The notes: generated by a model not told the origin, from the letters alone. 64,000 bases of DNA from an uncultured Fimbriimonadaceae bacterium (GCA_964405335.1 CAYONP010000009.1:12074-76073); one strand, 5' to 3'. Counted from the stretch's first letter, positions 10,932-55,553 are shown. Translations and numbers: made by a program.

Positions 10932-13900
10932 TCAGCCTGCAAGCCCGCGGAGGAGGCAGAGTGCTCGCTCGCCGGCCTGGCGGATGGTCCACCCGCGACC
11001 CTGTTCGGACGCGGCTTCGAACGCCTGCTCACCGAGCGTCTCACGCCATTGCGACAACGGCCCGGTGAGCTGCACGTCATGGACCTCGAGGGCCGGCGCG
11101 ACATTGGCGATGCGGTAGGCAGCGGCCGCAGACACGAGCCGGACCGCGTCGGCGGATGCGAGTGCCGGTATCAGGCTGACCCCCTCGATCGTGGCCAGCA
11201 CTCCGAGCTCGAGGTCGTGGCCCAGGGCGCGTTCGAGCACCTTGGCGTAGGCATCCACCGCGGCTGCCGGCCGGCCGCGCTCGCGTTCCAGATGCGCCAG
11301 GGCGACGTCGAGATAGGCCACCTGAAGGGGCTCGCCGGCCAGGTCCATCGCATCTCGTGCCTGGCGGAAGTACCACTCGGCCGGGCCGTAGTCGCCACGG
11401 CGTTGAGCGATCGCCGCCAAGCCGGCTTGATCGCTCGCTATCCGGTATGGCTGCTGGAGGACCTCGGCCAGCGACAAGGCCTGCCGATAGCCCGCCTCGG
11501 CGGCCGGTAGGTCGCCCTGGTGGAAAGCGATGCAGGCGACCATGCGAACGACGTGCTCCTCGAGTACGGGATCGCCTTCGCGCCGTGTGGCCGGCACGGC
11601 CTGAGCGAAGATCCGGCTCGCGGCTTCGAGGTTCTGGCTGCGGCGCAGCCAGTGCGCGATCATCACCAGCGACCAGACCGACGACCGGTCGTCCGCGCTC
11701 CGGCCGAGCTGGTCGAGGGCCTCGGCCTCCAGGTCGTCGGCCTCGGCCAGGCGCCCCTCGAGGCGCGCCAGCGTGCTCAGGCCGAACAGGGCGGTGGCCG
11801 CGGCGTTGCGATCCCCGAGCTCGCGAGCCAGGCCCAGATTCTGTTGCAGCCGGTCGGCGTCGGGCAGGCCCGGCATGGGACCGCCCGGTTGGTGGTCGCG
11901 CGCGAGCTGCAAACCGGCCATGTGCGTCAGCGCCTTCATCTGCTCGTGCCGGTCGCCGGCTTCGGCCCACAGCAGCAGGCTCTGTTCGGCCAGTTGGTAC
12001 GCCTCCAGCAGACGACCCTCAATGGTCGCCGCCACGTAGAGTCGTCCCAGGAAGGCGGCCAGCCGCCGCCGGTCCAATACCTGCTCGGCCGACTTCTGCG
12101 CGAGATGCCAGTGCCGGGCCGCTTCGGCGGCATCCTGATCGGCCGGCGGCAACAGCACCAGCAGATAGTGGGCCATGGCCTCGGCGGCGTGGTCACCCGC
12201 AGCAGTCCCGGCCCGCAGGGCCTCGGCGGCCCAGGTGGCGGCCTGGTCGTGACGGCCCAGCCGAAAGGCCAGCAGGCCGGCCGCCAGGGCCGCGGTCGCC
12301 CGAGCGGCAGTCAGCGTCTGGGCGCCCGGTGCGGCGAGCACAGCCTCCAGTTGTTCCAGGCCCTGGCTCCATCTGGCCTGCTGGTTCCAAAGCGCTCCGA
12401 GGGTGGCGGCCAATCGCAGGCCGTCGTCGGCCTGCTCCGCCCGCGACAGCGCTTCATCCAGGGCCATCTGAAGGTTGGCCTGCTCCTCGGCCAGTCGGCT
12501 AAGCCACACCGCCTCGTCGATCGGCCTGCCCGGCGCACCGTCGCCCAGCGCGGCGGCGAAGCAGGCGACCATCCGCGCCGACGCTCTCGGTCGCTCGCCG
12601 CGCTCGACCAACCGCTCAGCCGCGAACTCGCGGATCGTCTCGAACATCCGGTACCGCGGCTCGTCGCCCGTCAGGTCGAGCTGGAGCAGCGACCAGCCGC
12701 GGAGTAGCTCGAGGTAGTCTCTGGCCGAGGGCTCCTCGCCCACCGCTTCGGCGGCCTCGGCGCCGAAACTGCCGGCGAAGACGGACAGCCGCGCGAGGAA
12801 GGCCTGGAACGGCTCCGACAGCAGTTGGTAGCTCCAGGCGATGGCGGCTTCGAGCGTGCGGTGGCGTTCGGGCCGCCGGTCCGATCGCGCGGCCCGCCAG
12901 TGCAGCCGTTCGTCGAGCCGCTCGGCGAGGCGATGGACGCTCATCGACGGCAGGCGCGCAACCGCCAGCTCGAGCGCCAAGGGGATCCCCTCGAGGCCGG
13001 TGCAGACCGCGACTACCGCCGCCGCATTGCGTTCGCTCAAGACGAAATCAGGCACGGTGGCGCGGGCCCGATCGACGAACAGTTGCACACTCGGAACGCC
13101 GGCCACGGCGGCGATGTCGGCGCGCTCGCTCGGCAGGTCCAGCGGCTCGACCGGCACGGGTCGTTCGCCGGACAGGCCCAGTCTGCGCCGCGAGGTGGCC
13201 AGGCAGAGCAGCGACGGGCAGTCCTCGAGCAGCTTGCCGATGACCAGACCGGCCTCGGGCGTGAACTGCTCGAGGTTGTCCAGGATCAGCAGGCCGGGAT
13301 GCTCGCCAAAGAACCAGCGAAGCTGCTGATCCACGTGGCTCTGGGGTTCCAGGCCGATCCGGCGCAGAATCTCAAAGGTGAGGTCGGCCGCCGTTCGCAG
13401 GTCGGAAGCCTGAACGAACCAGGCCAGAGTGCCGCAGGTCCGCGCCATGTGCCAGCCGACCTCGACCGCCAGCCGTGTCTTGCCGCTGCCGCCCGGGCCG
13501 GTGAGGGTCACCAGGCGCGTGTCGTCGAGCAGCAACTCGGTCACCGCCGCGATCGCCGCCTCACGGCCATACGTTCGGCCCAGCACCGCGGGCAGCGCGG
13601 CGGTCACCGGCCGCTCCAGCGCCAATGGCTGCCCCACCGCGGCGCTGTCGGTGGCGAAGATCCCACAAGCCGCCGCTCCAGACCGGAGCCGGTACTCGCC
13701 CAGGCTAACCAGGCTCAAGTGCCGGCGGGCGCCCTGGCGCAGCAAGGCGGCGGTGGCCTCGGTCACGAGCAGTTGCCCATCCACCGCGGCGCGACGCAGT
13801 TGCTCGACCGATTCGGCTGCGGGACCGTCGAGCCGGAGGCTGACGTCAGCGGTATGGACGGCCAGCGCGAACTCGTTGTCGCGGACCCGCTCAGCGAAGG

Positions 13901-14891
13901 CGAACGCGTCGCCGGCGCGAGCAAAGGCGACCACGATGCCGTCGTCGTCGCGACGCGCCGGCACGGCACCGAATCGTTCGGCCTCGTCGGCAAGGCAGGC
14001 TGGCGCCGCGACGAAGGTCACGGTGCCGGTCAGGTCCGGATCACCGGCGGGCCGAAGGTCGAGCACCGCCAGGTCTTGGCGGGCCTTGTCGGGCTCGCCC
14101 AGCAGGGCCAGCAGCTCGGTGTCGGGTTCCCAGTCGCCGGTTCGGCGGCGCCTGGCGACGAACCCGTCGAGATGCCGACGAGCCGCCGCGCGGTCGTCCA
14201 CGGCCAGCTCGAGCTGCACGAGTCGACGGAGCAGTGGTTCGCAATCCGGCTCGGCCGAGTTGCCCAGGCGGGCCACCCGCAGGGCCTCGCCCGGCCGGCC
14301 GGCGGCGACATGCCACTCCACCAGCGCTTCCACTGCTTCGACGAAGCACTGCCGCAGCCGCGCCTCCTCGCTCAGCACCCACCGTTCGTAGCAGCAGGGC
14401 AGCAGCGGACCGCCATAGACCGACACGACCTGCTCGAATCGCGCTTGGCGCAACTCGTCGGTCGCCCGACCTGCCGCCTGGTAAGCCGCATCGAGCTGCT
14501 GCACGTCGGTCTCGAGCAGCTCATCCCGAACCCAGACCGACCGCCGGTCGGCTAGGACAAGCGTCTCCTTAGCCTGCTCCGGAGGGCAGAGCTGGCGGCG
14601 CAGGACGGATAGAGTGTAGCTCAGTCTGCCGCGCCCGCTGTCGGCTCCGCAACCGGGCCAGAGCAGCTCGATCAGCTCGTCACGTTCGTGCCGGCGGTGC
14701 GGGTGGTAGGTCAGGTAGGCGAGCAGTGAGGCCGCCTTCTGCGTGCGGAAGCGACAGAGCGTGCCGCCGGCATGCCGAACCTCGAGGGAGCCGAGCAGCC
14801 GTACCTGGTAGCCAACCACCTGACCGACCTTCCCCGACGGCGGACCTGCTCGCCCTGCGGAACAGAAGCGATGTGTACACCAGTGTGTCAA
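10932..14891 (-). CDS. SARP/AfsR-like transcriptional regulator: OmpR-type winged-helix DBD + BTAD + cyclase-like segment + NB-ARC P-loop ATPase + TPR repeats
   Basis: N-terminal YQVRLLGSLEVRHAGG...LLAYLTYHPHRRHERDELIELLWPG (SARP DNA-binding), Walker A LTGPGGSGKTRLAVEV, long C-terminal TPR-like helical repeats. True start may be an internal GTG near VGQVVGYQV. Confidence 0.8.
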   Translation of the reverse strand: MTHWCTHRFCSAGRAGPPSGKVGQVVGYQVRLLGSLEVRHAGGTLCRFRTQKAASLLAYLTYHPHRRHERDELIELLWPGCGADSGRGRLSYTLSVLRRQLCPPEQAKETLVLADRRSVWVRDELLETDVQQLDAAYQAAGRATDELRQARFEQVVSVYGGPLLPCCYERWVLSEEARLRQCFVEAVEALVEWHVAAGRPGEALRVARLGNSAEPDCEPLLRRLVQLELAVDDRAAARRHLDGFVARRRRTGDWEPDTELLALLGEPDKARQDLAVLDLRPAGDPDLTGTVTFVAAPACLADEAERFGAVPARRDDDGIVVAFARAGDAFAFAERVRDNEFALAVHTADVSLRLDGPAAESVEQLRRAAVDGQLLVTEATAALLRQGARRHLSLVSLGEYRLRSGAAACGIFATDSAAVGQPLALERPVTAALPAVLGRTYGREAAIAAVTELLLDDTRLVTLTGPGGSGKTRLAVEVGWHMARTCGTLAWFVQASDLRTAADLTFEILRRIGLEPQSHVDQQLRWFFGEHPGLLILDNLEQFTPEAGLVIGKLLEDCPSLLCLATSRRRLGLSGERPVPVEPLDLPSERADIAAVAGVPSVQLFVDRARATVPDFVLSERNAAAVVAVCTGLEGIPLALELAVARLPSMSVHRLAERLDERLHWRAARSDRRPERHRTLEAAIAWSYQLLSEPFQAFLARLSVFAGSFGAEAAEAVGEEPSARDYLELLRGWSLLQLDLTGDEPRYRMFETIREFAAERLVERGERPRASARMVACFAAALGDGAPGRPIDEAVWLSRLAEEQANLQMALDEALSRAEQADDGLRLAATLGALWNQQARWSQGLEQLEAVLAAPGAQTLTAARATAALAAGLLAFRLGRHDQAATWAAEALRAGTAAGDHAAEAMAHYLLVLLPPADQDAAEAARHWHLAQKSAEQVLDRRRLAAFLGRLYVAATIEGRLLEAYQLAEQSLLLWAEAGDRHEQMKALTHMAGLQLARDHQPGGPMPGLPDADRLQQNLGLARELGDRNAAATALFGLSTLARLEGRLAEADDLEAEALDQLGRSADDRSSVWSLVMIAHWLRRSQNLEAASRIFAQAVPATRREGDPVLEEHVVRMVACIAFHQGDLPAAEAGYRQALSLAEVLQQPYRIASDQAGLAAIAQRRGDYGPAEWYFRQARDAMDLAGEPLQVAYLDVALAHLERERGRPAAAVDAYAKVLERALGHDLELGVLATIEGVSLIPALASADAVRLVSAAAAYRIANVAPALEVHDVQLTGPLSQWRETLGEQAFEAASEQGRGWTIRQAGERALCLLRGLAG

Positions 14892-42979: not shown

Positions 42980-44551
42980 TCAGCTCCGCGGCACCAGCAC
43001 CGCCAGCGTGCGCTTGATCTCAGGCCAGGCGGAGCGCAGGAAGTCCTCCGCCGCGGCGGTGGTCTCCTCGACCGTGCCGCGCCAGGCGACGCCGAAGTGG
43101 ACCTGCGTCCAGACCCGGTTGCGGTCCCGCACGCTGCTGCCGGTGTACTTGGTCCAGTCGGTGATGGTCACCTCGCCGTCGGTGTAGGTGTACATGGCGA
43201 GATGCACCGGCAGACCGTCGAGGCCGACCACGACGTGCTCGAACGGTAGCCGCTCGCCGTCGAGCTCGAACTCGACCTGCTTCTGGTCGAGTATCTGGTT
43301 GCCGCCGCCGCGGATGCAGGCCGTCGGCGGGTGCAGGCTGCGCCGGCCGCGGCCGCAGATGACGTGGATGTAAGCCCCGGCGCGGAGCCGCTCGTTGACG
43401 TACTGGCGGCTGATCACCGCGACGTTGCCCAGCTCCTCGAACACGCCCTGGTCGACCTCGCCCTCTTCGGGGCAGATCCAGTCGCCAAACCGGAGCGGGA
43501 TCTGGCTCAGGTCGACGTCAGGCACTTCGGTCACCGGCGGCGCGACCGCCAGCCCGGTGAAGTGCAGACCAACCAGCAGGGCCGCCATGGCCGCCAGCGG
43601 CGCGAAGTCGAGCCGGAAGCGCGGCCGACCGTCGCCGGCCGGCGGCGGCGCCGCGGCGATGTCGGCCGACGGGCCGACAATCAGCCGAGCGGCAAGCACC
43701 AACACGCCGATGGCCACGATGAGCAGGATGGGCCCACTGAGCTTGTCGTGAAAGAAGCCGACGGCAAAGTCGTGGCCCCAGATGCGGCCGACACAGAGAA
43801 TCGAGAACAGCCGGATCACGTTCGAGGCGACGGCGATCGGCACGGCCAAGGCCAGGATTGCCGCTTTGCGCGCCGGCGTGGTGTCGGTCAGGTAGGCGAC
43901 CAGCACGCCGACCATGGTCAGGCCCATGATGGCCTTGAACCCCGAGCAGGCCACGCCGACGACATAGTCCTCGCCGTCGAGGACCATCACCGCGCCGTTG
44001 GCGGTCACCTCGGCGCCGGTGACGATGTACATCAGCACCGTGCCCAGCTTGGCGCTGAGCATCTGCATCGGGAAGCTCATGTCGTAGAGCCAGAGCCAAC
44101 TGATCGGCACGGCGAAGAAGAAGAAGCTGAGTGCGAACCAGGTCAGGCGATAGACCTGCGGCCCGCCGACGGTGAGCACCAGGCCATGCCAGAGGACCAC
44201 GCCCGAACAGGCGATGAAGAAGTTGATGTCGCTCTGCTGGCCGCGCAGGTAGAGCAGCGCGGCGGCGCCGACGACGGCCAGGCCTGGCCACCAGAAGCGC
44301 CACTCGGCGGTGGCCAGCGCGGCCCGAGCGCGCCAGACGAGCCAGCCCGAGATCACCGGCACCAGGTAGCCGTGCGAGTAGTAAGGGTTCTCGTCCCAGC
44401 CGTCGACGACCCATTTGAGCTGGAAGTCATAGGCGAGGTAGAAGGCGTAGACCAGGGCCGCCAGGCCGACCAGGGCCAACGGCTCGGGCGGTCGCACGGC
44501 CTGGCGTTCGTCGCCCGGCGGGTCGGCCGGGGTGTCGACCAGGTCACTCAT
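42980..44551 (-). CDS. Exosortase (EpsH/Xrt family) fused to a C-terminal EpsI-like domain
   Basis: Polytopic membrane N-region with exosortase motif ENPYYSHGYLVP, Arg in LYLRGQ and the conserved Cys region; C-terminal 180-aa soluble domain after the last TM. Confidence 0.8.
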   Translation of the reverse strand: MSDLVDTPADPPGDERQAVRPPEPLALVGLAALVYAFYLAYDFQLKWVVDGWDENPYYSHGYLVPVISGWLVWRARAALATAEWRFWWPGLAVVGAAALLYLRGQQSDINFFIACSGVVLWHGLVLTVGGPQVYRLTWFALSFFFFAVPISWLWLYDMSFPMQMLSAKLGTVLMYIVTGAEVTANGAVMVLDGEDYVVGVACSGFKAIMGLTMVGVLVAYLTDTTPARKAAILALAVPIAVASNVIRLFSILCVGRIWGHDFAVGFFHDKLSGPILLIVAIGVLVLAARLIVGPSADIAAAPPPAGDGRPRFRLDFAPLAAMAALLVGLHFTGLAVAPPVTEVPDVDLSQIPLRFGDWICPEEGEVDQGVFEELGNVAVISRQYVNERLRAGAYIHVICGRGRRSLHPPTACIRGGGNQILDQKQVEFELDGERLPFEHVVVGLDGLPVHLAMYTYTDGEVTITDWTKYTGSSVRDRNRVWTQVHFGVAWRGTVEETTAAAEDFLRSAWPEIKRTLAVLVPRS

Positions 44552-46233
44552 TGACCGGCCCCCAGTCCGCCACGCCAGGCGGTCGCGCGGGCCAGCTCCT
44601 TGGCCTTCAACAGGCCGTCGAACTGCTCCTTCGACTGCACCGCAATCTGGGCCAGCCGGGCGGCATTCTCACGGTCGCCGCGGGCCTCGGCCACCAGCGC
44701 CAAGTGGAAGTGGATCTCGCCGCTCTTGGGCAGGCTCTCGAGCGCCTCGCGGAACAGCGCTTCGGCGCCGGCCAGGTCATCGCGCTTGAGCAGCACGTAG
44801 CCCATGGTGTCGAGCAGGTTCGGGTTGCGACCGCTGAGCTGCAACGCGCGCTGGATGCAAGTCAGCGCGACGTTCATCTTAGAGCTGTCCGCCGACGAGT
44901 AGCGCGCCAGGTGCCAGGCCAGGTTGTTCAACGCCAGGATGTCGTTGGCGTTCTCTTGCAGCAGGGCGATGTACTGCCGCTCAATCGCCTCGATCAGCGG
45001 CGCCGCCGGCTCCTGCTCCGACCGCGCGGCGACCTGCTGCAGAAAGACCGTCATGTGCCGCAACGCCTCGCTGCGCCGTGAGGCATCGTTCTGCAGCACG
45101 TCGTTGTACAGCTCGAGCGTGTACTGCGTGTCGGCGTTGAACTCGGCCAGCGTGTTGGCCAGCCGGAGCAACATGCCCATGTTGCCCTTGGTCAGCTCGC
45201 GCACGCGCCGGATGTGGGTGATGGCGACATCGGCCCGGCCGTCGGCGAACAGCGCCTGGGCATAGACCAGCCGCACCTCGGCCTCGATCTCCGGCTCGAC
45301 CGCCGGCTCGCCGCGGTCGGCCACCGTTTCGATGGTCTCGAGCAGCTTGCCGGCCATGCGCCGCGCCTCCTGCGCCCGGCCGGCGGTGCGCAGCACGCCC
45401 GCCATCTGGGTCTGGGGCAGGATGTAGCCCTCGCGGCGCGTCTTCTTCCACTCTTCCAGCGCCTCCGGCTCGGTCGGCGGCTTCGGCGCCAGGGGATGGT
45501 CGTCCATCCACTTCTGAATCACCGCCTCGCAGTCGGCGAACCGCCCGCTGTTGAGCAGGAACGACGCCAACTCGTCGCGGTACTGCGCGACCGGGTGGTC
45601 GGCCAGCCGCTCGCGCAGCAGCCGCTCGACCGTCGCGCCGTCGAACTCAGCGCCGGCGATCGCCAGCCGCAGCTCGCGCACCTGCTCCGAGCCGGGCAGC
45701 CTGGCCGCCAGCACCTGGTAGTGCCGCTTGGCCGTGGCGATGTCCTGACCGCCCAGCGCCGCCTGGACCAAGCGGTAGCGGGCGACATGGTTGTCGGCGT
45801 TCAGGTCGATCGCCCGGCCCCAGCTCCCGATCGCCAGGTCCCGCGCGCCGAGCGCCAGGTAGAGGTCGCCCACGGCGGCCTGCACCTCTGAGCTGTCGCG
45901 GTTCTCTTCGTCGAGCTGCTCGACCATCTTGGCGGCGGTGGCGCGGTCGCCCGAGGAGAGCTTCAGCGAGGCCAGACCGGCGGTCGCCTCGGCGTTGTTT
46001 GGTTCCATCTCAAGCGCGCGGGTGAACGCCTGCTCGGCCTTCAGCCAGGCCTTGCGCTGAACCTCGAGCGAGCCGATGCGGACCAGTGCCTCGGCCGTCG
46101 GCTGGCCCGCGATCTGGTCATACAGCGCCTGCAACTCCGCCGGCAGCTCGAGCGAAAAGACCCGCGCCTCGCGGCCGCAGCCGCCCAGCGCCAGGCCGGC
46201 CAGCAGCACCAGCATCCATCCACTGCGTCGCAT
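44548..46233 (-). CDS. TPR-repeat lipoprotein (PEP-CTERM system PrsT-like)
   Basis: Start ATG at 46233 (in frame with track ORF 44548..46743); MRRSGWMLVLLAGLALGGCG lipobox then repeated TPR helices; 4-bp overlap with the exosortase. Confidence 0.7.
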   Translation of the reverse strand: MRRSGWMLVLLAGLALGGCGREARVFSLELPAELQALYDQIAGQPTAEALVRIGSLEVQRKAWLKAEQAFTRALEMEPNNAEATAGLASLKLSSGDRATAAKMVEQLDEENRDSSEVQAAVGDLYLALGARDLAIGSWGRAIDLNADNHVARYRLVQAALGGQDIATAKRHYQVLAARLPGSEQVRELRLAIAGAEFDGATVERLLRERLADHPVAQYRDELASFLLNSGRFADCEAVIQKWMDDHPLAPKPPTEPEALEEWKKTRREGYILPQTQMAGVLRTAGRAQEARRMAGKLLETIETVADRGEPAVEPEIEAEVRLVYAQALFADGRADVAITHIRRVRELTKGNMGMLLRLANTLAEFNADTQYTLELYNDVLQNDASRRSEALRHMTVFLQQVAARSEQEPAAPLIEAIERQYIALLQENANDILALNNLAWHLARYSSADSSKMNVALTCIQRALQLSGRNPNLLDTMGYVLLKRDDLAGAEALFREALESLPKSGEIHFHLALVAEARGDRENAARLAQIAVQSKEQFDGLLKAKELARATAWRGGLGAGQ

Positions 46234-46390
46234 CGCTGCCTCCCTCGCCGCCGCCCAGGTCTCCGCATTGACGGTAGTATCGCCGGACGAGCCGCCTTCT
46301 TGACCCCGCCACTCACCTACATTATGCCGTGCCGCGGCGGACGCGTCGCGTAACGGGCGTCGATCACCCGGCTGCAAATCAGGTGCCGCC

Positions 46391-47497
46391 TCACCCGGCC
46401 AGCGCGGTGCGATAGGCCTGCAAGTGCCGCTCGGCCGACCGCCGCCAGGTGAAGAGCGCCGCGCGCTCACGCGCCAGACCGGCCCGCCGCGCGCGCTCGC
46501 CGTCGTCGGCCAGCAGCCGGACCAGCGTCGCCGCCCATTCCTCGGCGGCATCGGGCGGCAGGTGCGGCACCGCCTCGCCGGTGACCTCGACCAGCGCCGG
46601 CGTGTCGCTGACCAGCGGCAGCGTGCCGCAGGCGGCCGACTCGAGCGGCGGCAGGCCGAAGCCCTCGTAGTAGGACGGATAGCAGAATAGCGTGGCGCCG
46701 GTGTAGAGCGCTGGCAGGTCGCCGTCGGGCACGTAGCCGGCAAAGCGGATGCGATCGCTCAGGCCGAGCCGCTCAATCGCCGCCAGCACCGGCGCCTGGC
46801 CCCAGCCGACCCGGCCGACGATGACCAGCGGCGTCTCGTCGCCGAGCCGGCGCAACTCGGCCATCGTCCACACCAGGCCGAGCAGGTTCTTGCGCGGCTG
46901 CAGCAGCCCGACGCTGAGCAGATAGCGCTCGGGCAACGCGTACTTCTCCCGCACCACCGCGACGGCATCGGCGCCGGCCGGCGCGAACTCCGCGCCGATC
47001 CCGTTCGGCACGGCGAAGACACGGTCGGGCGGCAGGCGATAGAGCCGCAGCAGGTCACGCCGCGTCGTCTCGCTCACCCCAACCACGGCCCCGGCGCGGC
47101 GGCAGGCGCGGGGCACCGACCAGCGGAGCAGCAGTCGGTCGCGCCAACGAAAGGTCCGCGGCAGCAGCTCGTAAGAGCAGTCGTGGACGGTGGTGACGAA
47201 CGGGCAGGGCAGCCACGGCGGGGCGCTGTATTGCAGGTGGACCAGGTCGACCCCGAGCCGGGCGGCCAGCCGCGGCAGGGCAACCAGCGTCCACAGCCGG
47301 CCGCCCGGTTGAGCGACGACCTCGATGCGGAGGTTGGCACGCCGCGGCAGCAGGCCGGCCTCGGGCCGCTGGTCGACCGCGGCGATGAACTGCCATTCCG
47401 GCGCGGCAGCCGGCAGTTCGCGCAGCAGGCCGAGCCAGTAGGTGCGGTCGCCGGTCTTGCGGCCGATGATCGGCCGCGCGTCGAGCAGGACCTTCAT
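46391..47497 (-). CDS. Glycosyltransferase family 4 (GT1 fold)
   Basis: Start ATG at 47497; C-terminal PSYYEGFGLPPLESAACGTLPLVSD motif (EX7E). Confidence 0.8.
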   Translation of the reverse strand: MKVLLDARPIIGRKTGDRTYWLGLLRELPAAAPEWQFIAAVDQRPEAGLLPRRANLRIEVVAQPGGRLWTLVALPRLAARLGVDLVHLQYSAPPWLPCPFVTTVHDCSYELLPRTFRWRDRLLLRWSVPRACRRAGAVVGVSETTRRDLLRLYRLPPDRVFAVPNGIGAEFAPAGADAVAVVREKYALPERYLLSVGLLQPRKNLLGLVWTMAELRRLGDETPLVIVGRVGWGQAPVLAAIERLGLSDRIRFAGYVPDGDLPALYTGATLFCYPSYYEGFGLPPLESAACGTLPLVSDTPALVEVTGEAVPHLPPDAAEEWAATLVRLLADDGERARRAGLARERAALFTWRRSAERHLQAYRTALAG

Positions 47498-47605
47498 GCG
47501 GCGATGATGCCCGCCGGCACGGCGGCGGTCAAGCGGGCGGTCCGCGGGATCGACGACCGCGACAGCTAGAGCGTGCAAGCGCACGCCGACCAGCCCAAAT
47601 GGTAG

Positions 47606-48556
47606 ACAAACCGGGCAGTCGTCGCTTACCACTCGGTCGCCAGCCAGGGCAACGTCACCGCCACGCCGCTCTATGACGCCTGGGGCACCGAGCGCACGCA
47701 GGCGACCCCCGACCCCATCGGCTACAAGGGCCAGACCGGCTACTACCAAGATGTCGAGACCTGTCTTGTGCTATGTACGTATCGCTACTACGACCCCACC
47801 CGCGGCCGCTGGCTGACCCGCGACCCGATTGGTTATGGTGGCGGGCTCAACTTGTATGGGTACTGTGGGGCGGATCCGGTGGGCGGGGTGGATCCGCTTG
47901 GTCTGCAGGCAACCGAGCTCATCCCGGAGGCGCCAGAGGTCCTCCTCCGGGAACTTGCCGAAGAGACCACGGAGAACGTGTCGCGTCGCACCTCGCAGAA
48001 CGTAGCCGGACGGGCGGCGCGCAGCGTCGGCACACGGGCGGCCACCTCAACCGGTGCGTCGCTCGGTTGGGCTGGCACATTCTGCCGCGTAACGGGCTGG
48101 GGCATGGTTGCCGCGTCGATCGTGCAGGGCTACGCGCTGTACGAGGACATTCGGGGCGCGCGGGTCGCAGCGTGGGCCGCCGAACCGGCGCCAGGATACT
48201 ACGAGAGGCGACAGAGGCGCAAGCAGCAACCGGATGAGCATTCCTACATACGCGTGGTGGGCTCATCGGCCGAATGGGCGGCCGTCCGCCAAGCAGGCGG
48301 GCTCGTACCCAGCACGGATCCCAGACTTGGTGCAGGGAACACACGAATCGCGGACCCCAGCTGGTACCCCTACCTGAGGGACCTCCATCCAGACGCGCCC
48401 GGCATGGTGATCGTCACGTTCTCGCAGTCCGTCGTCGAAATGGGCCCGGATGTGTACCGTCGTGGCGATGCTCCCCTCGCATTTGTCGTCCGCGCGGCTG
48501 CGGCCAACCGCCGCGCAGTTCGCCTGGAACTTCGCGATCTCAGCCCCATCTACTGA
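47606..48556 (+). CDS. Orphan rhs C-terminal module 1: RHS repeat-associated core tail (YRYYDPTRGRWLTRDPIGYGGGLNLYGYCGADPVGGVDPLGL) + about 200-aa variable toxin tip; no RHS body or canonical start
   Basis: Open frame begins right after an in-frame TAG at 47603; first in-frame start-like codon is GTG 47768. The YDAWG...GYKGQTGYYQDVET segment is the end of the last YD repeat. Confidence 0.6.
   Translation, partial: TNRAVVAYHSVASQGNVTATPLYDAWGTERTQATPDPIGYKGQTGYYQDVETCLVLCTYRYYDPTRGRWLTRDPIGYGGGLNLYGYCGADPVGGVDPLGLQATELIPEAPEVLLRELAEETTENVSRRTSQNVAGRAARSVGTRAATSTGASLGWAGTFCRVTGWGMVAASIVQGYALYEDIRGARVAAWAAEPAPGYYERRQRRKQQPDEHSYIRVVGSSAEWAAVRQAGGLVPSTDPRLGAGNTRIADPSWYPYLRDLHPDAPGMVIVTFSQSVVEMGPDVYRRGDAPLAFVVRAAAANRRAVRLELRDLSPIY
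47710..47893 (+). repeat. 184-bp direct repeat (RHS core-tail coding sequence), second copy at 49720..49903, about 95% identical
   Basis: Aligned by eye; identity ends exactly at the codon after DPxGGVD, where the toxin tips diverge. Confidence 0.7.
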
Positions 48557-48557
48557 C

Positions 48558-48983
48558 TTGGAGAGCGCCTTGCTGAAGGTGTTGGTCGCCTCGTCGCGAA
48601 CAGTCTTGACCGAGCTCTACCGGCGTCGGCTGCCGCGACCGCTGGCGGAGGGCGTGGAACAGGTCAGTCCGTGGAGGGTCCCCGAAGCGATCTTGCTCCG
48701 CGAGCCCTGCTTCGTCGTGATTGACACTCAGCGCGACGTCGCCAGAGCGGTTCAGCTAGTGAACGATATTCACCATGCATTGTCCTCGTACCCAGGGCAC
48801 TTTCCAGACTTGGTGCTGTTCATTCCAGACCGTAGTTTCACCGATAATATGTCCGTCGGGGCCTGGATGATTGATGGAGTCGCTGCTGTATCGCAAGTCG
48901 TTGCTTACACTGATGGAAGAGAGGCTGCTGCCGTTGAGGACACGGTTGCACTGCTGCTATCCCGTGCCCATCCTACGAACTGA
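48558..48983 (+). CDS. Putative immunity protein for rhs tip 1 (low-GC ORF; start uncertain: TTG 48558, or ATG 48450/48468 overlapping the toxin)
   Basis: Immediately 3' of toxin tip 1; GC content visibly lower (about 55%) than the flanks; no known domain. Confidence 0.4.
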   Translation: MESALLKVLVASSRTVLTELYRRRLPRPLAEGVEQVSPWRVPEAILLREPCFVVIDTQRDVARAVQLVNDIHHALSSYPGHFPDLVLFIPDRSFTDNMSVGAWMIDGVAAVSQVVAYTDGREAAAVEDTVALLLSRAHPTN

Positions 48984-49105
48984 CCCGGCCGCACCACCGC
49001 CGGCATCCTGCCCAACGGCGCGCGCACCGGCTACACTTACGGTCCCGGCAGCGTCCTGGCCGTGCTGGAGGTGCTTCGGCAGGTGCTGGAATCGGGAGAC
49101 ACGCC

Positions 49106-49702
49106 ATGGCATTGATGGTCTGGGAACTGCGGCCGTCCGGCGGCTTCGTGCCGTTGGTCGACCTGAGCGATGAGGCCGCCGGCGAGAACATGGCTGCCAA
49201 TGGCTGGGGCCCGGGCGTGGGTTGGGGCTTCAACGGTCGGGTGTATGGCGAGGCGTTCGTGCCGCCTCGGCTCACGCCGCTGTTCGATCGCCAGCATCGC
49301 GGCATGGTGGTCAGCGACTGCCCCATGTGGGGCGACACCAGCGCTCCGTTGCTGAGCCGGCGGGCGGTGGAGGCGCTACGCGACATGCTGGAGCCGAACG
49401 GTGAGCTGTTGCCGGTGATCTGCGACTACGAGGAGTTCTGGATCTTCAACACCACTCGGCTGCTCGATGCACTGGACGAAGCGGAGTCAGAACTTCGCCG
49501 CTTCCCGAGCAGCGGCCGCATCATGAAGATTGAGCGCTATGAGCTTCTGGCGGATCAGCTCGGTGAGTGCCCTATCTTCAAGCTCACGTTGGATGCTCAC
49601 GGACGCGCCCTGGTCACCAAGGAGTTCATCGACCGCGTGAACCAATCGGCGTTGGTTGGGTTCAGCTTCTGTCCAATCTGGACTTCAGCACGACAGTCAT
49701 AG
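49106..49702 (+). CDS. Hypothetical protein (198 aa) within the rhs tip array, possibly an orphan immunity protein
   Basis: ATG start; stop TAG 49700-49702 is in the same frame as, and directly abuts, the next RHS core tail. Confidence 0.45.
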   Translation: MALMVWELRPSGGFVPLVDLSDEAAGENMAANGWGPGVGWGFNGRVYGEAFVPPRLTPLFDRQHRGMVVSDCPMWGDTSAPLLSRRAVEALRDMLEPNGELLPVICDYEEFWIFNTTRLLDALDEAESELRRFPSSGRIMKIERYELLADQLGECPIFKLTLDAHGRALVTKEFIDRVNQSALVGFSFCPIWTSARQS

Positions 49703-51022
49703 CGCACCCAGACCGCACCCGACCCCATCGGCTACAAGGGCCAGACCGGCTACTACCAAGATGTCGAGACCGGCCTGGTGCTTTGTACGTATCGCTACTA
49801 CGACCCCACCCGCGGCCGCTGGCTGACCCGCGACCCGATTGGTTATGGTGGTGGGCTCAACTTGTATGGGTACTGCGGGGCGGATCCGGTGGGCGGGGTG
49901 GATGCGACTGGAGAGTTCGTACAGATCCTAGTCGGTGCAGGCATCGGCTTGGCCTTCGACGCCGCCGTGCAGTTGGCGACAACCGGCCATTGGGACTGGC
50001 GGAGGGGCGCCGCGGCCGCGGCGGCGGGCGCGGCAACCGCATTGCTCGGGCCAGCCGCCGGAATGCTGGCCCGCGGGCTTGGCGGTGGGCTGCTTGGTGC
50101 TGCCGGCGCCGGTGCGGCGATGGGTGCGGCCGGCGCCGCCGTCGGCACCGGCGTCGGCAATGCACTCAACGGGCAGCCGCTGACCAAACGGATGCTCGGC
50201 AACATGGCGGCGGGCGCGGTCGGCGGCGCTATCATGGGTGGCGCCGGCTACGCGATGCGGCAGATGCTCGGCCGTGCCCGCGGCAATCCTACCGCGCGGC
50301 AGACGGGCGGTTGCTTCGTTGCCGGCACGCCCGTTCAGATGGCTGATGGTACGAGCAGACCGATCGAGGAGGTCAAAGCCGGCGACCGGGTCCTCGCCCG
50401 AGATGAGGTCACCGGCGCAACCGGCGCGCAGACCGTCGAAGAGGCCTTCGCCCACGTCGCGGCGTCCAGCGTGGTGCTGCACCTCGACTCCGGCGAGACG
50501 GTCGAGACCACCGACGAGCATCCGTTCTACGTGGCTGCCACGGGCTTCGTGCCGGCCGGCCGGCTGGCGGTGGGCAACGCGATCGTCACCCGCGCCGGCC
50601 CGCCGGCGGTCGTGGTGGCGATCGAGCACCGCCGGCGTCCGCTGGAGGTTCACAACCTGCGCGTGGAGGGTGCTCACACCTACTTCGTGGGCTTGTCGGG
50701 CGGCGGGGTTTGGGTGCACAATCAGGCGTGCCCGCCGGCGAGTGGTGGGCGTCCGGCAGGCTATGGGCGGAAGGCCCCAGAGACCGTCCACCCGCCGATG
50801 CGGACCAACGATGGCTTGGAGGCCGCACAGCGCTTCCTGGGCCCAGGCTATCGCGAAGTCTCGCCGGGCAGGTATGTCTCTGCCGACGGCACCCGGCAAG
50901 TACGGCTTGGCACCCACGAGGTGATACCTGGGCAGGAGCACATTCACTTCGAGACACTGCAACCGAACTCTGTCGACGGCACGTTCACAGTGAGGCATAC
51001 CGACACCTACCCGCTGAGATAG
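49703..51022 (+). CDS. Orphan rhs C-terminal module 2: RHS core tail + pretoxin Hint domain + about 95-aa toxin tip
   Basis: RTQTAPDPIGYKGQTGYYQDVETGLVLCTYRYYDPTRGRWLTRDP...; Gly/Ala-rich linker; Hint blocks CFVAGTPVQMADGTSRPIEEVKAGDRVLARDE ... EVHNLRVEGAHTYFVG ... VWVHNQAC; then distinct tip (GRPAGYGRKAPETVHPPM...HIHFETLQPNSVDG...). First start-like codon is GTG 49778. Confidence 0.6.
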   Translation, partial: RTQTAPDPIGYKGQTGYYQDVETGLVLCTYRYYDPTRGRWLTRDPIGYGGGLNLYGYCGADPVGGVDATGEFVQILVGAGIGLAFDAAVQLATTGHWDWRRGAAAAAAGAATALLGPAAGMLARGLGGGLLGAAGAGAAMGAAGAAVGTGVGNALNGQPLTKRMLGNMAAGAVGGAIMGGAGYAMRQMLGRARGNPTARQTGGCFVAGTPVQMADGTSRPIEEVKAGDRVLARDEVTGATGAQTVEEAFAHVAASSVVLHLDSGETVETTDEHPFYVAATGFVPAGRLAVGNAIVTRAGPPAVVVAIEHRRRPLEVHNLRVEGAHTYFVGLSGGGVWVHNQACPPASGGRPAGYGRKAPETVHPPMRTNDGLEAAQRFLGPGYREVSPGRYVSADGTRQVRLGTHEVIPGQEHIHFETLQPNSVDGTFTVRHTDTYPLR

Positions 51023-51024
51023 CT

Positions 51025-51285
51025 ATGGAATACTACGTAGTTATGTACGAGGCCGACGTTCCGGTAGCAGGCATCCACCCTGACTTGGCTCACACCCAGC
51101 GTGCCCAGATGCCGCGGCCGGCTCACCTTCAGTTGATTCTCTGTGACAAGGGAGAGGTGAACATCTTGCTGCTGGATGCAGATGGCGACGAGTATTACGA
51201 TTTTGGATACAGCACAGCCGACGAGGCGTTCCATGACGCCCTGCTCTGGTATGGCGTGCCGCGCGAGAGTTGGCGCGAAGTGTGA
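51025..51285 (+). CDS. Putative immunity protein for rhs tip 2 (86 aa, low GC)
   Basis: ATG 3 bp after the toxin stop; MEYYVVMYEADVPVAGIHPDLAHTQRAQ...; AT-richer codon usage. Confidence 0.45.
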   Translation: MEYYVVMYEADVPVAGIHPDLAHTQRAQMPRPAHLQLILCDKGEVNILLLDADGDEYYDFGYSTADEAFHDALLWYGVPRESWREV

Positions 51286-51304
51286 TTGGCCCTCGCGTCA
51301 ATGA

Positions 51305-51883
51305 GCGACCGACCAGACGGGCGCGCAGACGGTCGAGGAGGCCTTCGCCCACGTCGCTGCGGCGACGCTGGTACTGCACCTGAACACCGGCGAGACGATC
51401 GAGACCACCGACGAGCATCCGCTCTACGTGGCGGGCGAGGGCTTCGTGCCGGCCGGTCGGCTGGCGGTGGGCAACGCGGTCGTCACCCGCGCCGGCCCGC
51501 CGGCGGTCGTGGTCGCGATCGAGCACCGTCGCCTTCCGCTGGTCGTGCACAACCTGCGCGTGGAGGGTGCACACACCTACTTCGTGGGCTTGTCGGGCGG
51601 CGGGGTTTGGGTGCACAATCAGGCGTGTCCGGTGCCGAGCTTCCCCTTTGAGCGGGCGGCTCGTATCTTCCGGAACGCGAGTGGGCACGTGAACCCCTCG
51701 ACCGCAGCATCCATGCAGCGACGGATCCGTATGTTCCAGCAAGTGGCAAGCAACCCGGTTAACCTACGGCCCGGTGCGTCTCCGGCGCCGGGCGTGGACG
51801 TGTATACGCAGAGATTCCAGAATGGCGAGGTGTGGGTGCATGTCTGTGGCGGCGTCATCTCAAACGCGGGAGTGAACCCCTGA
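51305..51883 (+). pseudogene. Orphan rhs tip 3: 5'-truncated Hint domain fragment + third distinct toxin tip (no start codon; begins right after the in-frame TGA at 51302-51304)
   Basis: 306 bp (51326-51631) about 88% identical to 50429-50734 of module 2; divergent C-terminus VPSFPFERAARIFRNASGHVNPSTAASMQRRIRMFQQ...VWVHVCGGVISNAGVNP. Confidence 0.5.
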
Positions 51884-52416
51884 TGGGTCACTCTGGGCAT
51901 GTCCAGCAAGGCGCCGATTGGCTGGCACGCGGTAGGCGTCACGATGCTGCGGGCCAACTGGTCGAGGCAGCCTTGTGCTACGAGTGTGCGTGCGTCTGCA
52001 CCGGTCTTCAAGCCAGCGAGATGACGACTCTGCTCACGCTGTGTGTGGAGGTGTCCGATCATGGGGTAGCCCACTCGATGGGGCTTACAGTGTGGGATGA
52101 GCGGCGGTTCCGACTGCGCGCAGCAGACCTAATCACCATCGGCCGGCGCTGCCTGCCGGCGGATAGCGAATTCCATTTCTGGGCGCGTTACACCCACAGC
52201 ATCTGGGGTGATGAACCGTACCTCAGCTATGAGGAATGTCGCGTCATGGCCGAGGGCCTCGACGGACTGGCGCCCTATGCGTTTCTCTATCAGCACGATC
52301 AGCACCACCGGGACGTTGACTCGCTCGACTATCGCGACCAGATCGACGATCTGCGGGCCTCCATCGAGGGTGTCAACGATGCCCGGGCGCGGGAAATTCG
52401 GCACCTGCTGCGGTAG
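51883..52416 (+). CDS. Putative immunity protein for rhs tip 3 (177 aa)
   Basis: ATG overlaps the tip-3 stop (TGATG); contains lower-GC stretches. Confidence 0.4.
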   Translation: MGHSGHVQQGADWLARGRRHDAAGQLVEAALCYECACVCTGLQASEMTTLLTLCVEVSDHGVAHSMGLTVWDERRFRLRAADLITIGRRCLPADSEFHFWARYTHSIWGDEPYLSYEECRVMAEGLDGLAPYAFLYQHDQHHRDVDSLDYRDQIDDLRASIEGVNDARAREIRHLLR

Positions 52417-52523: not shown

Positions 52524-53963
<1,440 letters not shown>

Positions 53964-54377
53964 GGCGCGGTTCCGGGAGCGATGATACACGATGGGCGGC
54001 GATCCTGCGCGGCCGATTCCGGGCTCGCCCGGCCGGCTTGGCTCAGCGGCTTTCGAAACGTCGTGGATGGAACGCGGCGGTAGGCAGGCTCGATGGACCG
54101 CTTGGCTGTCGGAGTTTCTTGAGAATCAGATAGAACAGGTATGGCGCGGCGTATAGCGTTGTGGTTTGTGGTAATGGGGTTCGATTCGCCGGGACTTGGT
54201 CAGCGTCGAGGCACGAGTGGCCCGCTGCCGTGCACGGCGATGGTCTACGGCTTCGAACGGTACCGCCGATGCCCGGTAGCGCGGACGGCCGGACCGCGAG
54301 TACACTTGTATCTGTTCAGCGGCTGCTGGCGGTCGATCCGGTCCATCGGGATTCGGCGCGGTTGCAGGAAGTTCGTG

Positions 54378-55409
54378 ATGGGGTTGCCGAGGTTCGGTGG
54401 TGGTGGAGTGGCGCGGAGATCCGGGTCGTGTCTCGGGTGGGCGCTGGTGCTGGCGGCCGCGTGTGTGACGATCACGGCGTCGACCGTTGCGGCCGAGCCG
54501 CCGGTGGCGGCTCAGTGCCGGTCCTGGTTGCTCCCGTACGACAGCACCCCGAGAGCGTGCGTTGTCGTCAACGGCGAGTTGTGGGTCGGCTTTGCCGGCT
54601 ACGACGGAGCCTACACGGGCATCGCGGCCTATCGAGGCGACGGCGAGTTGTTGGCCGCAATCCCAACGACTTCCCGCGTCGCGGGCTTGGTTTACAGCGA
54701 GGCCGCCGATGCCTTGCTGGCGTCCTTGGAGAGTGGCAGCGTCCTGCGCATCGACGCGGCAACCCGGCAGCCGTCGGGTAGCTGCGAGACCGGCAGAGTC
54801 CTGTCGGGCATGTGCAGCGTCGGCGGGAGAGTCTACGGATGCGCTTGGGAGCGGTCCGAGCTCTCTCAGGTGGATGCCGTCGAGCTGAAGATCGGGAACG
54901 CCGTGCCGCTCAGCGCCCATGGAATGCGAGCCCTGGCGGTTGCCGACCGGCTGTACGTCGCGGTCGGGGGTGAGGACGGAGCGGCTGGGCTGGACATCCT
55001 CGATCTCGTCGAAGGGCATCGGCTGGCAACGGTACCTGTCCCGGGTATGCTCGCGCGGGCGTTGGACTGGGATGGTGAGCAGTTCATCTACATCGCGGCT
55101 GATTCGGATGCAATCCTCGTTCGCTACGACCTGCAACGACATGCGCTCGACCCCGGTTTCAACGTCCGCGTTGACCAGGCCACCGATTTGGTCGTCGACC
55201 CTGGCCGAGGCCGTGTGTACGTTGCCGCCGCCACCATGCAGTCGCTCATGGTCATCTCGACCGGCGATGGGGAGGTGCTGGCGCGGTACGGCGCGGTAGG
55301 AGGCTACCTGGCGCCTGAGCGGCGGGCAGACCGGTCGGTAACCAATCTGTGGGCAACCAACTGGGCCATCGACAGCCTCATCTGTCTCAATCCGGCCCAA
55401 CTCCCGTGA
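54378..55409 (+). CDS. Secreted YVTN/YncE-like beta-propeller protein
   Basis: ATG at 54378 in frame with track ORF 54141..55409; signal peptide MGLPRFGGGGVARRSGSCLGWALVLAAACVTITA; repeats RLYVAVGGEDG, RVYVAAATMQSLMVIS. The opposite-strand ORF 54126..55541 is Arg-rich noise. Confidence 0.55.
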   Translation: MGLPRFGGGGVARRSGSCLGWALVLAAACVTITASTVAAEPPVAAQCRSWLLPYDSTPRACVVVNGELWVGFAGYDGAYTGIAAYRGDGELLAAIPTTSRVAGLVYSEAADALLASLESGSVLRIDAATRQPSGSCETGRVLSGMCSVGGRVYGCAWERSELSQVDAVELKIGNAVPLSAHGMRALAVADRLYVAVGGEDGAAGLDILDLVEGHRLATVPVPGMLARALDWDGEQFIYIAADSDAILVRYDLQRHALDPGFNVRVDQATDLVVDPGRGRVYVAAATMQSLMVISTGDGEVLARYGAVGGYLAPERRADRSVTNLWATNWAIDSLICLNPAQLP

Positions 55410-55553
55410 TGGCGGGTCGCGGTGGCGTTCGTCGCCGGACGGGCCGCCGCGCGTGCGGCCGGCTATCGGCGCCCGGTGGGTGGGCCCAGGTGCGGGCGGC
55501 CGGCACGCGGGTCCGCCGGATGGGCCGGACATTGCCGCCACCCGCTCGCGGCG

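Follow-up and report, generated by a model that had tools for sequence, protein, structure and literature searches.

A probable stranded array of orphan Rhs C-terminal toxin/immunity cassettes in a high-GC genome of likely Armatimonadota origin

The window analysed here is a 64,000-nucleotide stretch of DNA from an uncultured Fimbriimonadaceae bacterium (GCA_964405335.1, CAYONP010000009.1:12074-76073). The region 47606-52416 of its + strand carries seven reading frames and is most probably a stranded orphan array of Rhs C-terminal (CT) toxin/immunity cassettes, borne by a high-GC genome that probably belongs to the Armatimonadota. The array is ordered T1-I1, a lone Imm11 gene, T2-I2 and T3-I3. 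The three toxin fragments (T1, T2 and T3) are all truncated at their 5' end, and each is abutted by a small open reading frame (ORF), with gaps of +1, +2 and -1 nt, respectively. These small ORFs have a lower GC content (0.589 for I1, 0.578 for I2 and 0.627 for I3 versus 0.706 for the whole window). The features on which the argument relies are the following.

T1, 47606-48556, + strand: 5'-truncated rhs fragment comprising an RHS core tail (47606-47890) and the tip CT1 (47891-48553, 221 aa)
I1, 48558-48983, + strand: putative immunity ORF of 141 aa with an uncertain TTG start, 1 nt past the T1 stop codon
Imm11-family gene, 49106-49702, + strand: 198 aa, matching PF07791, with no toxin upstream
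T2, 49703-51022, + strand: RHS core tail (49703-49909), Gly/Ala-rich hydrophobic linker (49910-~50310), pretoxin-HINT domain (PT-HINT, 50312-50725) and the tip CT2 (50726-51019, 98 aa)
I2, 51025-51285, + strand: putative immunity ORF of 86 aa, with an ATG 2 nt past the T2 stop codon
T3, 51305-51883, + strand: partial PT-HINT (51308-51622) lacking the N-terminal Cys block and the tip CT3 (51623-51880, 86 aa)
I3, 51883-52416, + strand: predicted immunity partner of the CT3 family, 177 aa, TPR-like and all-helical, whose ATG overlaps the T3 stop codon (TGATG)
Handle D2 (RHS tail), copy 1 47691-47901 and copy 2 49701-49911, + strand: 211 nt, 93% identity, copy 2 starting at the stop codon of the Imm11 gene
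Handle D1 (PT-HINT), copy 1 50411-50710 and copy 2 51308-51607, + strand: 300 nt, 89% identity, with homology reaching ~50736/51633

Core tails, homology handles and the missing Rhs body

Two of the three fragments begin with Rhs sequence. The core of T1, which spans its first 95 residues, matches the Rhs-associated core TIGR03696 over its full length (1-76, E 8e-22) and ends in PVGGVDPLGL, i.e. the canonical PxxxxDPxGL demarcation motif, after which comes the variable tip. The RHS tail of T2 matches the same profile (E 1.9e-19), and the motif is conserved only in part in its counterpart, PVGGVDATGE, where DPxGL is broken at the point at which homology ends. T2 also carries a complete PT-HINT domain (PF07591 profile positions 3-137 of 137, 91.6 bits, E 6.7e-26) running from Cys1 (CFVAGTP) to VHNQ/AC. 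The replacement of DPxGL by DATGE, together with the intact HINT downstream, suggests that the T2 toxin would be released by HINT autoprocessing rather than by the Rhs aspartyl protease. T3 contains no RHS sequence at all and shares only the HINT domain with T2; its own PT-HINT is truncated at the 5' end and incomplete (profile positions 27-137, E 1.7e-16). The sequence-only reading, in which every fragment began with RHS sequence, was thus right for T1 and T2 and wrong for T3, which starts in the middle of the HINT domain.

Two pairs of repeats, considered here as homology handles, link these cassettes. Within the D2 handle, a core of ~190 nt is ~96% identical between the two copies, in good agreement with the 184-bp near-identical repeats initially placed at 47710 and 49720. 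The alignment of the D1 copies extends their homology to ~315 nt, with an identity of 89-90% over the ~300-315 nt, close to the 306 bp at about 88% identity first attributed to a pretoxin Hint repeat common to tips 2 and 3. The variable tips start exactly where the handles stop, past GGVD for the Rhs tail and past VHNQAC for the HINT. Since most of the substitutions that separate the copies are synonymous (dN/dS ~0.11 for the Rhs tail and ~0.30 for the HINT domain), the cassettes appear to have diverged inside functional genes and not as neutrally decaying local duplicates.

The absence of an Rhs body, already asserted by the sequence-only reading, extends to the whole window: none of its ORFs resembles an Rhs shell, and no RHS homology was found upstream of 47606 in any frame. 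Full-length Rhs proteins from Armatimonadota align to the window from 47609, and the matches of eight Rhs proteins from related loci (265-2090 aa) are confined to 47609-47995 and 49712-49918, with the exception of one toxin-domain match at CT3. The T1 frame opens after a TAG codon (47603-05) and the T2 frame on the codon that follows the stop of the Imm11 gene; a start codon is absent from the 5' end of T1, T2 and T3. All seven frames are nevertheless intact, with zero internal stops or frameshifts, and the periodicity of GC content at third codon positions (GC3) agrees with the assigned frames. Taken as a whole, the core and HINT domains, the handles that end at the tips and the restriction of Rhs matches to the tails support the orphan rhs-CT/immunity array with recombination handles that was originally proposed, including its small, lower-GC ORFs, which had been placed within 0-3 bp of each tip.

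The nearest Rhs tails, found by searching 185,579 GTDB species representatives, a set that does not contain the source genome, are 59-69% identical and all come from Armatimonadota metagenome-assembled genomes (MAGs); the tentative assignment of the window to this phylum relies on them. Among the closest relatives (MAGs L002, L005, L008 and L013), 4-6 RHS tails within 7-9 kb are common. The layout of the array is therefore ordinary for the lineage and is unusual only in being stranded without a main gene. The N-termini of the full-length Rhs proteins of Armatimonadota (L021:5219-10873, L010:3455-9208 and L007:5366-10744) consist of Peptidase_C39-like and DUF6531 domains and are not of the PAAR/VgrG type, which hints at an export route other than the type VI secretion system for Rhs in this phylum. 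The C-terminus of the first of these proteins (L021) is a Tox-REase-7 domain.

The three immunity-like genes previously listed are not the full set, as a fourth one, the 198-aa ORF at 49106-49702, had been overlooked. It matches Imm11 (PF07791) with an E-value of 3.4e-7 and 30.2 bits (gathering cut-off 22.1), the match spanning profile positions 105-191 of 194. Zhang et al. 2012 (PMC3482391) connected Imm11 proteins with polyimmunity loci and with nuclease toxins of the Tox-AHH, Tox-HNH and Tox-SHH types. The most suitable interpretation of the ORF is that of an orphan immunity gene left behind after the loss of its toxin.

The three tips and their partners

None of the three tips matches PDB sequences, and neither the tips nor I1-I3 match Pfam or NCBIfam families at E <= 1 to 10; tblastn searches with the tips and the immunity ORFs against 54 RHS loci were also negative. 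A chimeric query made of CT1, CT2 and CT3 was misleading, as it returned only self matches, its low-complexity part crowding out the candidates.

Used alone, CT3 retrieves six homologues with 44-52% identity from a word-indexed protein search, and a metagenome scan with the alignment of these six homologues adds 26 further loci. The resulting family, which is unannotated, includes 25 other distinct sequences and is characterised by the motif GHIFR-x-A-x-GHVNP...VASNPxN...WV...NAGVN; the residues kept across the family are H14, R17, H22, R33 and the NAGVN motif. A profile of the family matches neither Pfam nor PDB sequences. In the 26 metagenome loci, the CT3 homologues are carried by RHS proteins or other large proteins, such as two RHS proteins (L071 and L082, the latter with DUF6443 and RHS repeats) and an ORF of more than 2090 aa (L068). 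One homologue belongs to an array of Stenotrophomonas maltophilia, where it lies on an orphan fragment just downstream of a 1776-aa Rhs protein. That locus (L055:1-11040, GCA_045923395.1) is a large orphan/polyimmunity array, in which three or more orphan fragments with RHS tails and roughly twelve small ORFs come after the Rhs gene, including the CT3 homologue (P0008) and its partner.

Every CT3 locus with a complete 3' end has, after the toxin ORF, an ORF of ~165-190 aa from a single partner family, which in nearly all cases overlaps the toxin stop codon by 4 nt. Against a hidden Markov model (HMM) built from 19 of these partner ORFs, I3 obtains 47.3 bits (E 9e-17), compared with at most 7.1 bits for 500 shuffles, and it fits the profile along its whole length. 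Because the same partner family occurs in every complete locus and because of this HMM score, T3/I3 is considered a conserved module of a putative toxin and its partner. The partner family is helical, displays weak TPR matches and falls outside all Pfam immunity families.

The AlphaFold model of CT3 best matches RNase toxins of the BECR fold. Its matches include CdiA-CT from Klebsiella pneumoniae 342 (6cp9), the colicin D tRNase (5znm, 1tfk) and BrnT (3u97), as well as the CdiA-CTs of E. coli O32:H37, Serratia and EC3006 and the toxin of a Salmonella toxin-antitoxin (TA) system (7vd7). The model has the alpha/beta organisation of this fold, with an N-terminal helix or helices packed on an antiparallel beta-sheet, and can be superimposed on known members. 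A Foldseek search with the same model gave no significant match, ParE-type toxins ranking second and third. The predicted structure thus points, with moderate confidence, to a BECR RNase fold and not to a new one.

CT2 has one detected homologue, P0010, with 51% identity over 70 aa. It forms the C-terminus of a ~1000-aa non-RHS protein that includes a PT-HINT domain and is encoded by a contig of planctomycete-like appearance (L059:7000-10990). In that protein, several hundred residues and a scaffold gap (run of N) lie between the start of the PT-HINT (CFVGDTQV) and the remainder of the domain; the HINT was split either by an insertion or by a fault in the assembly. Further members of the CT2 family may exist besides this single homologue, because a word-indexed protein search with CT2 and I2 missed the window's own P0002, which had been found earlier; negative results of the word-indexed search are not exhaustive. 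No match to CT2 was found in viral contigs, and its structure model is too weak for a fold classification. I2 belongs to no Pfam or NCBIfam family and has no match in plasmids.

An exhaustive phmmer search of 1.84 billion representative proteins retrieved no homologue of CT1 at E <= 0.001, and CT1 has no match in plasmids, Pfam, NCBIfam or PDB sequences either. The searches carried out with I1, which covered Pfam, NCBIfam, plasmids and viral contigs, were likewise negative. The earlier suggestion that the tips may be new toxin folds therefore fares differently from one tip to the next: it is contradicted for tip 3 by the match of its model to the BECR fold, and it would now concern tip 2, with its one homologue, and tip 1, which has none. 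It is possible, albeit doubtful, that tip 1 and/or tip 2 are antibacterial toxin domains of undescribed fold or activity with equally novel immunity proteins and that CT3/I3 represents a new clade of BECR RNases with a TPR-like inhibitor. Were this the case, as many as three uncharacterised toxin-immunity pairs, from a phylum that has received little study, would be brought together in one compact array.

A model for the array and its alternatives

Orphan CT/immunity modules have been described (Poole et al. 2011, PMC3150448), and recombination with the main rhs gene leads to the deployment of a Salmonella orphan rhs tip that is itself devoid of initiation and export signals (Koskiniemi et al. 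2014, PMC3967940). The analysis establishes the domain architecture of the array, its repeats, the lack of an Rhs body in the window, the co-conservation of T3 with I3 and the predicted fold of tip 3. The origin of the array, as well as the toxicity, immunity, expression and actual recombination that we infer for it, can be viewed as follows. Each fragment would be the 3' end of a former polymorphic-toxin gene, made up of a short conserved handle and a unique toxin domain, the handle being the Rhs core tail for T1 and T2 and the pretoxin-HINT for T2 and T3. In the displacement model of polymorphic toxin loci, with which the anatomy of the array agrees, incoming tip/immunity cassettes would recombine at the handle and push the older ones downstream, each of which would keep a handle stub. 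As the Rhs shell and the N-terminal export region are missing, the fragments are undeliverable in their present form. The four immunity genes would protect the cell from neighbours deploying the cognate toxins, and the silent tips would constitute a reservoir that could be fused to a full-length rhs gene, or to one another, by homologous recombination at the handles. Recombination between the T1 and T2 tails would fuse the T1 tail to the T2 tip and delete 2,010 bp, and recombination between the HINT domains of T2 and T3 would fuse the T2 HINT to CT3 and delete 897 bp. Any of the tips could also be taken up by a full-length rhs gene located elsewhere, provided that the tail of this gene is similar. 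Once delivered, tip 2 would be freed by HINT autoprocessing after a membrane-active Gly/Ala-rich linker, and tip 3 would most likely act as a BECR-fold ribonuclease neutralised by the TPR-like immunity protein.

Several observations weigh against this reading. There is no full-length rhs gene within the 64-kb window, so that the recipient of the proposed recombination is unproven. A scan of the + strand, which was not calibrated for this phylum, revealed no promoter- or terminator-like sites. The cognate partners claimed for all three tips by the sequence-only reading are demonstrated for one pair of the three, T3/I3. The ORF found downstream of the CT2 homologue (82-87 aa) is similar to I2 in size, its sequence similarity to I2 being non-significant, and the pairing of T1 with I1 is positional only, neither CT1 nor I1 having a relative in the databases searched with it. 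Lastly, CT3 of the window harbours an Arg where 24 of its 25 relatives have the first His of the motif (H14R) and lacks a 9-aa loop; it also deviates at two further near-invariant positions (A53S and Q69E). This version of CT3 may be inactive or may have diverged strongly.

The same deviations of CT3 could be expected if the whole region were a non-functional relic, i.e. an rhs locus that lost its body by deletion and left decaying pseudogene fragments, with a role perhaps remaining for one or two immunity genes. Such a scenario would also account for the abrupt end of T1 at 47606, right beside the divergent glycosyltransferase gene and with no RHS sequence upstream, for the three toxin fragments devoid of a 5' start codon and for the DATGE that stands in T2 in place of the canonical DPxGL cleavage motif. 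However, decaying fragments are difficult to reconcile with seven intact frames whose GC3 periodicity follows the assignments, with handles that differ mainly by synonymous changes and with an I3 protein that matches its family profile from end to end, and this explanation is considered unlikely. Alternatively, the fragments could be expressed alone from internal GTG codons and act as intracellular TA-like modules. The NCBI gene calls do begin at such codons (P0001 at 47768, 262 aa; P0002 at 49778, 414 aa; P0003 at 51428, 151 aa), and RHS elements, including an orphan rhs, were reported to work as type II TA modules in Salmonella (Starsta et al. 2020, PMC7043789). Nevertheless, direct reading of the sequence places these three GTGs inside the conserved handles, without recognisable ribosome-binding sites; the T3 product would begin in the middle of the HINT domain, and the uncalibrated scan mentioned above yielded no promoter-like site on the + strand. 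Altogether, the chances of expression of this kind appear slim.

Finally, the array could be a chimeric join of several rhs loci created during assembly by collapsed repeats, a danger that the sequence-only reading had itself raised. The 84-kb source contig of NCBI may come from a MAG, and RHS tails are repeated in such genomes. However, the copies of the repeats differ by 7-11%, which is too much for a collapse and makes a collapsed-repeat artefact very unlikely. Moreover, the junctions lie at cassette boundaries, as in the arrays of many independent assemblies, among which is that of the Stenotrophomonas isolate; an artefact of assembly is thus extremely improbable.

Neighbouring genes and known systems

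The orphan array is flanked by a divergent gene encoding a GT4 glycosyltransferase (- strand, ATG at 47500) and by a gene encoding a class II fumarase (- strand, 52524-53990). Synteny of these flanking genes (GT4 and FumC) was sought in the related loci and none was found. The left boundary of the array, at ~47600, is located ~100 nt from the start codon of the glycosyltransferase gene. This gene is part of an exopolysaccharide/PEP-CTERM-type locus (42980-47500, - strand) that adjoins the left edge of the array and also encodes an exosortase (EpsH and DUF3485, 523 aa) and a TPR protein. Farther away, a gene at 10932-14891 (- strand) encodes a 1319-aa STAND-type nucleoside triphosphatase (NACHT/AAA_16/NB-ARC signals at residues ~440-570 and C-terminal TPR repeats) that could be a signalling or defence protein. 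On the other side of the array, at 54126-55541, two long ORFs overlap on opposite strands (54141-55409 on the + strand, 422 aa; 54126-55541 on the - strand, 471 aa), the former having no Pfam match.

Two candidate features of the array region were rejected. A frameshift at the T1/I1 junction had been suspected from the GC3 plot, but frame 2 is interrupted by stops at ~48375 and ~48408, and its high GC3 corresponds to the G-rich first codon positions of frame 1. The 122-nt gap between I1 and the Imm11 gene (48984-49105) looked by eye like a relic of a YD repeat; the resemblance is not significant (p = 0.22) and the gap gives no Pfam match.

Orphan Rhs cassettes are well understood in principle, and this locus leaves the general picture unchanged. 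It documents the orphan-cassette layout in the Armatimonadota, whose Rhs relatives have C39-like N-termini. It also leads to the delimitation of an unannotated toxin/immunity family, made of the CT3 BECR-like domain and its TPR-like partner, whose carriers, Rhs proteins among others, come from Stenotrophomonas and from many metagenomes. The position of tips 1 and 2 makes them candidates for the discovery of toxins.

Compared with known BECR RNase toxins, CT3 shows no detectable sequence similarity (2-14% identity, without any Pfam or PDB profile match). Its family has its own motif and a TPR-like immunity partner, the copy of the window lacks the first His, and its RNase activity is a prediction. 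As in loci of the Imm11 family (DUF1629, PF07791) involved in polyimmunity, the Imm11 ORF lies among other immunity genes without a toxin of its own; however, only the C-terminal half of the profile is matched and the AHH, HNH or SHH partner toxins are absent from the locus.

T2 resembles the PT-HINT (PF07591) polymorphic toxins (Zhang et al. 2012, PMC3482391), as its full PT-HINT directly precedes the variable toxin domain; the only CT2 homologue found also has a PT-HINT ahead of its tip. It differs from them in the nested position of its HINT domain, which is preceded by an Rhs core tail and a Gly/Ala-rich linker. In T3, what is left of the domain is its C-terminal three quarters, and the fragment would thus be incapable of the N-terminal HINT chemistry.

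The closest parallel in organisation is provided by the orphan rhs-CT/rhsI cassettes of enterobacteria, exemplified by Salmonella Typhimurium LT2 and E. coli (PMC3150448, PMC3967940). These are likewise 5'-truncated rhs fragments, disposed in tandem, that keep part of the core and carry a unique tip with an immunity gene next to it; their core homology permits tip-swapping recombination. By contrast, the array described here has no main rhs gene upstream and adjoins an exopolysaccharide/exosortase locus, and the related full-length Rhs proteins of Armatimonadota have Peptidase_C39-like and DUF6531 N-termini instead of being linked to PAAR/VgrG. Furthermore, the handle of its third cassette is a PT-HINT and not an Rhs core, so that the pretoxin-HINT can be seen as a second, nested recombination handle.

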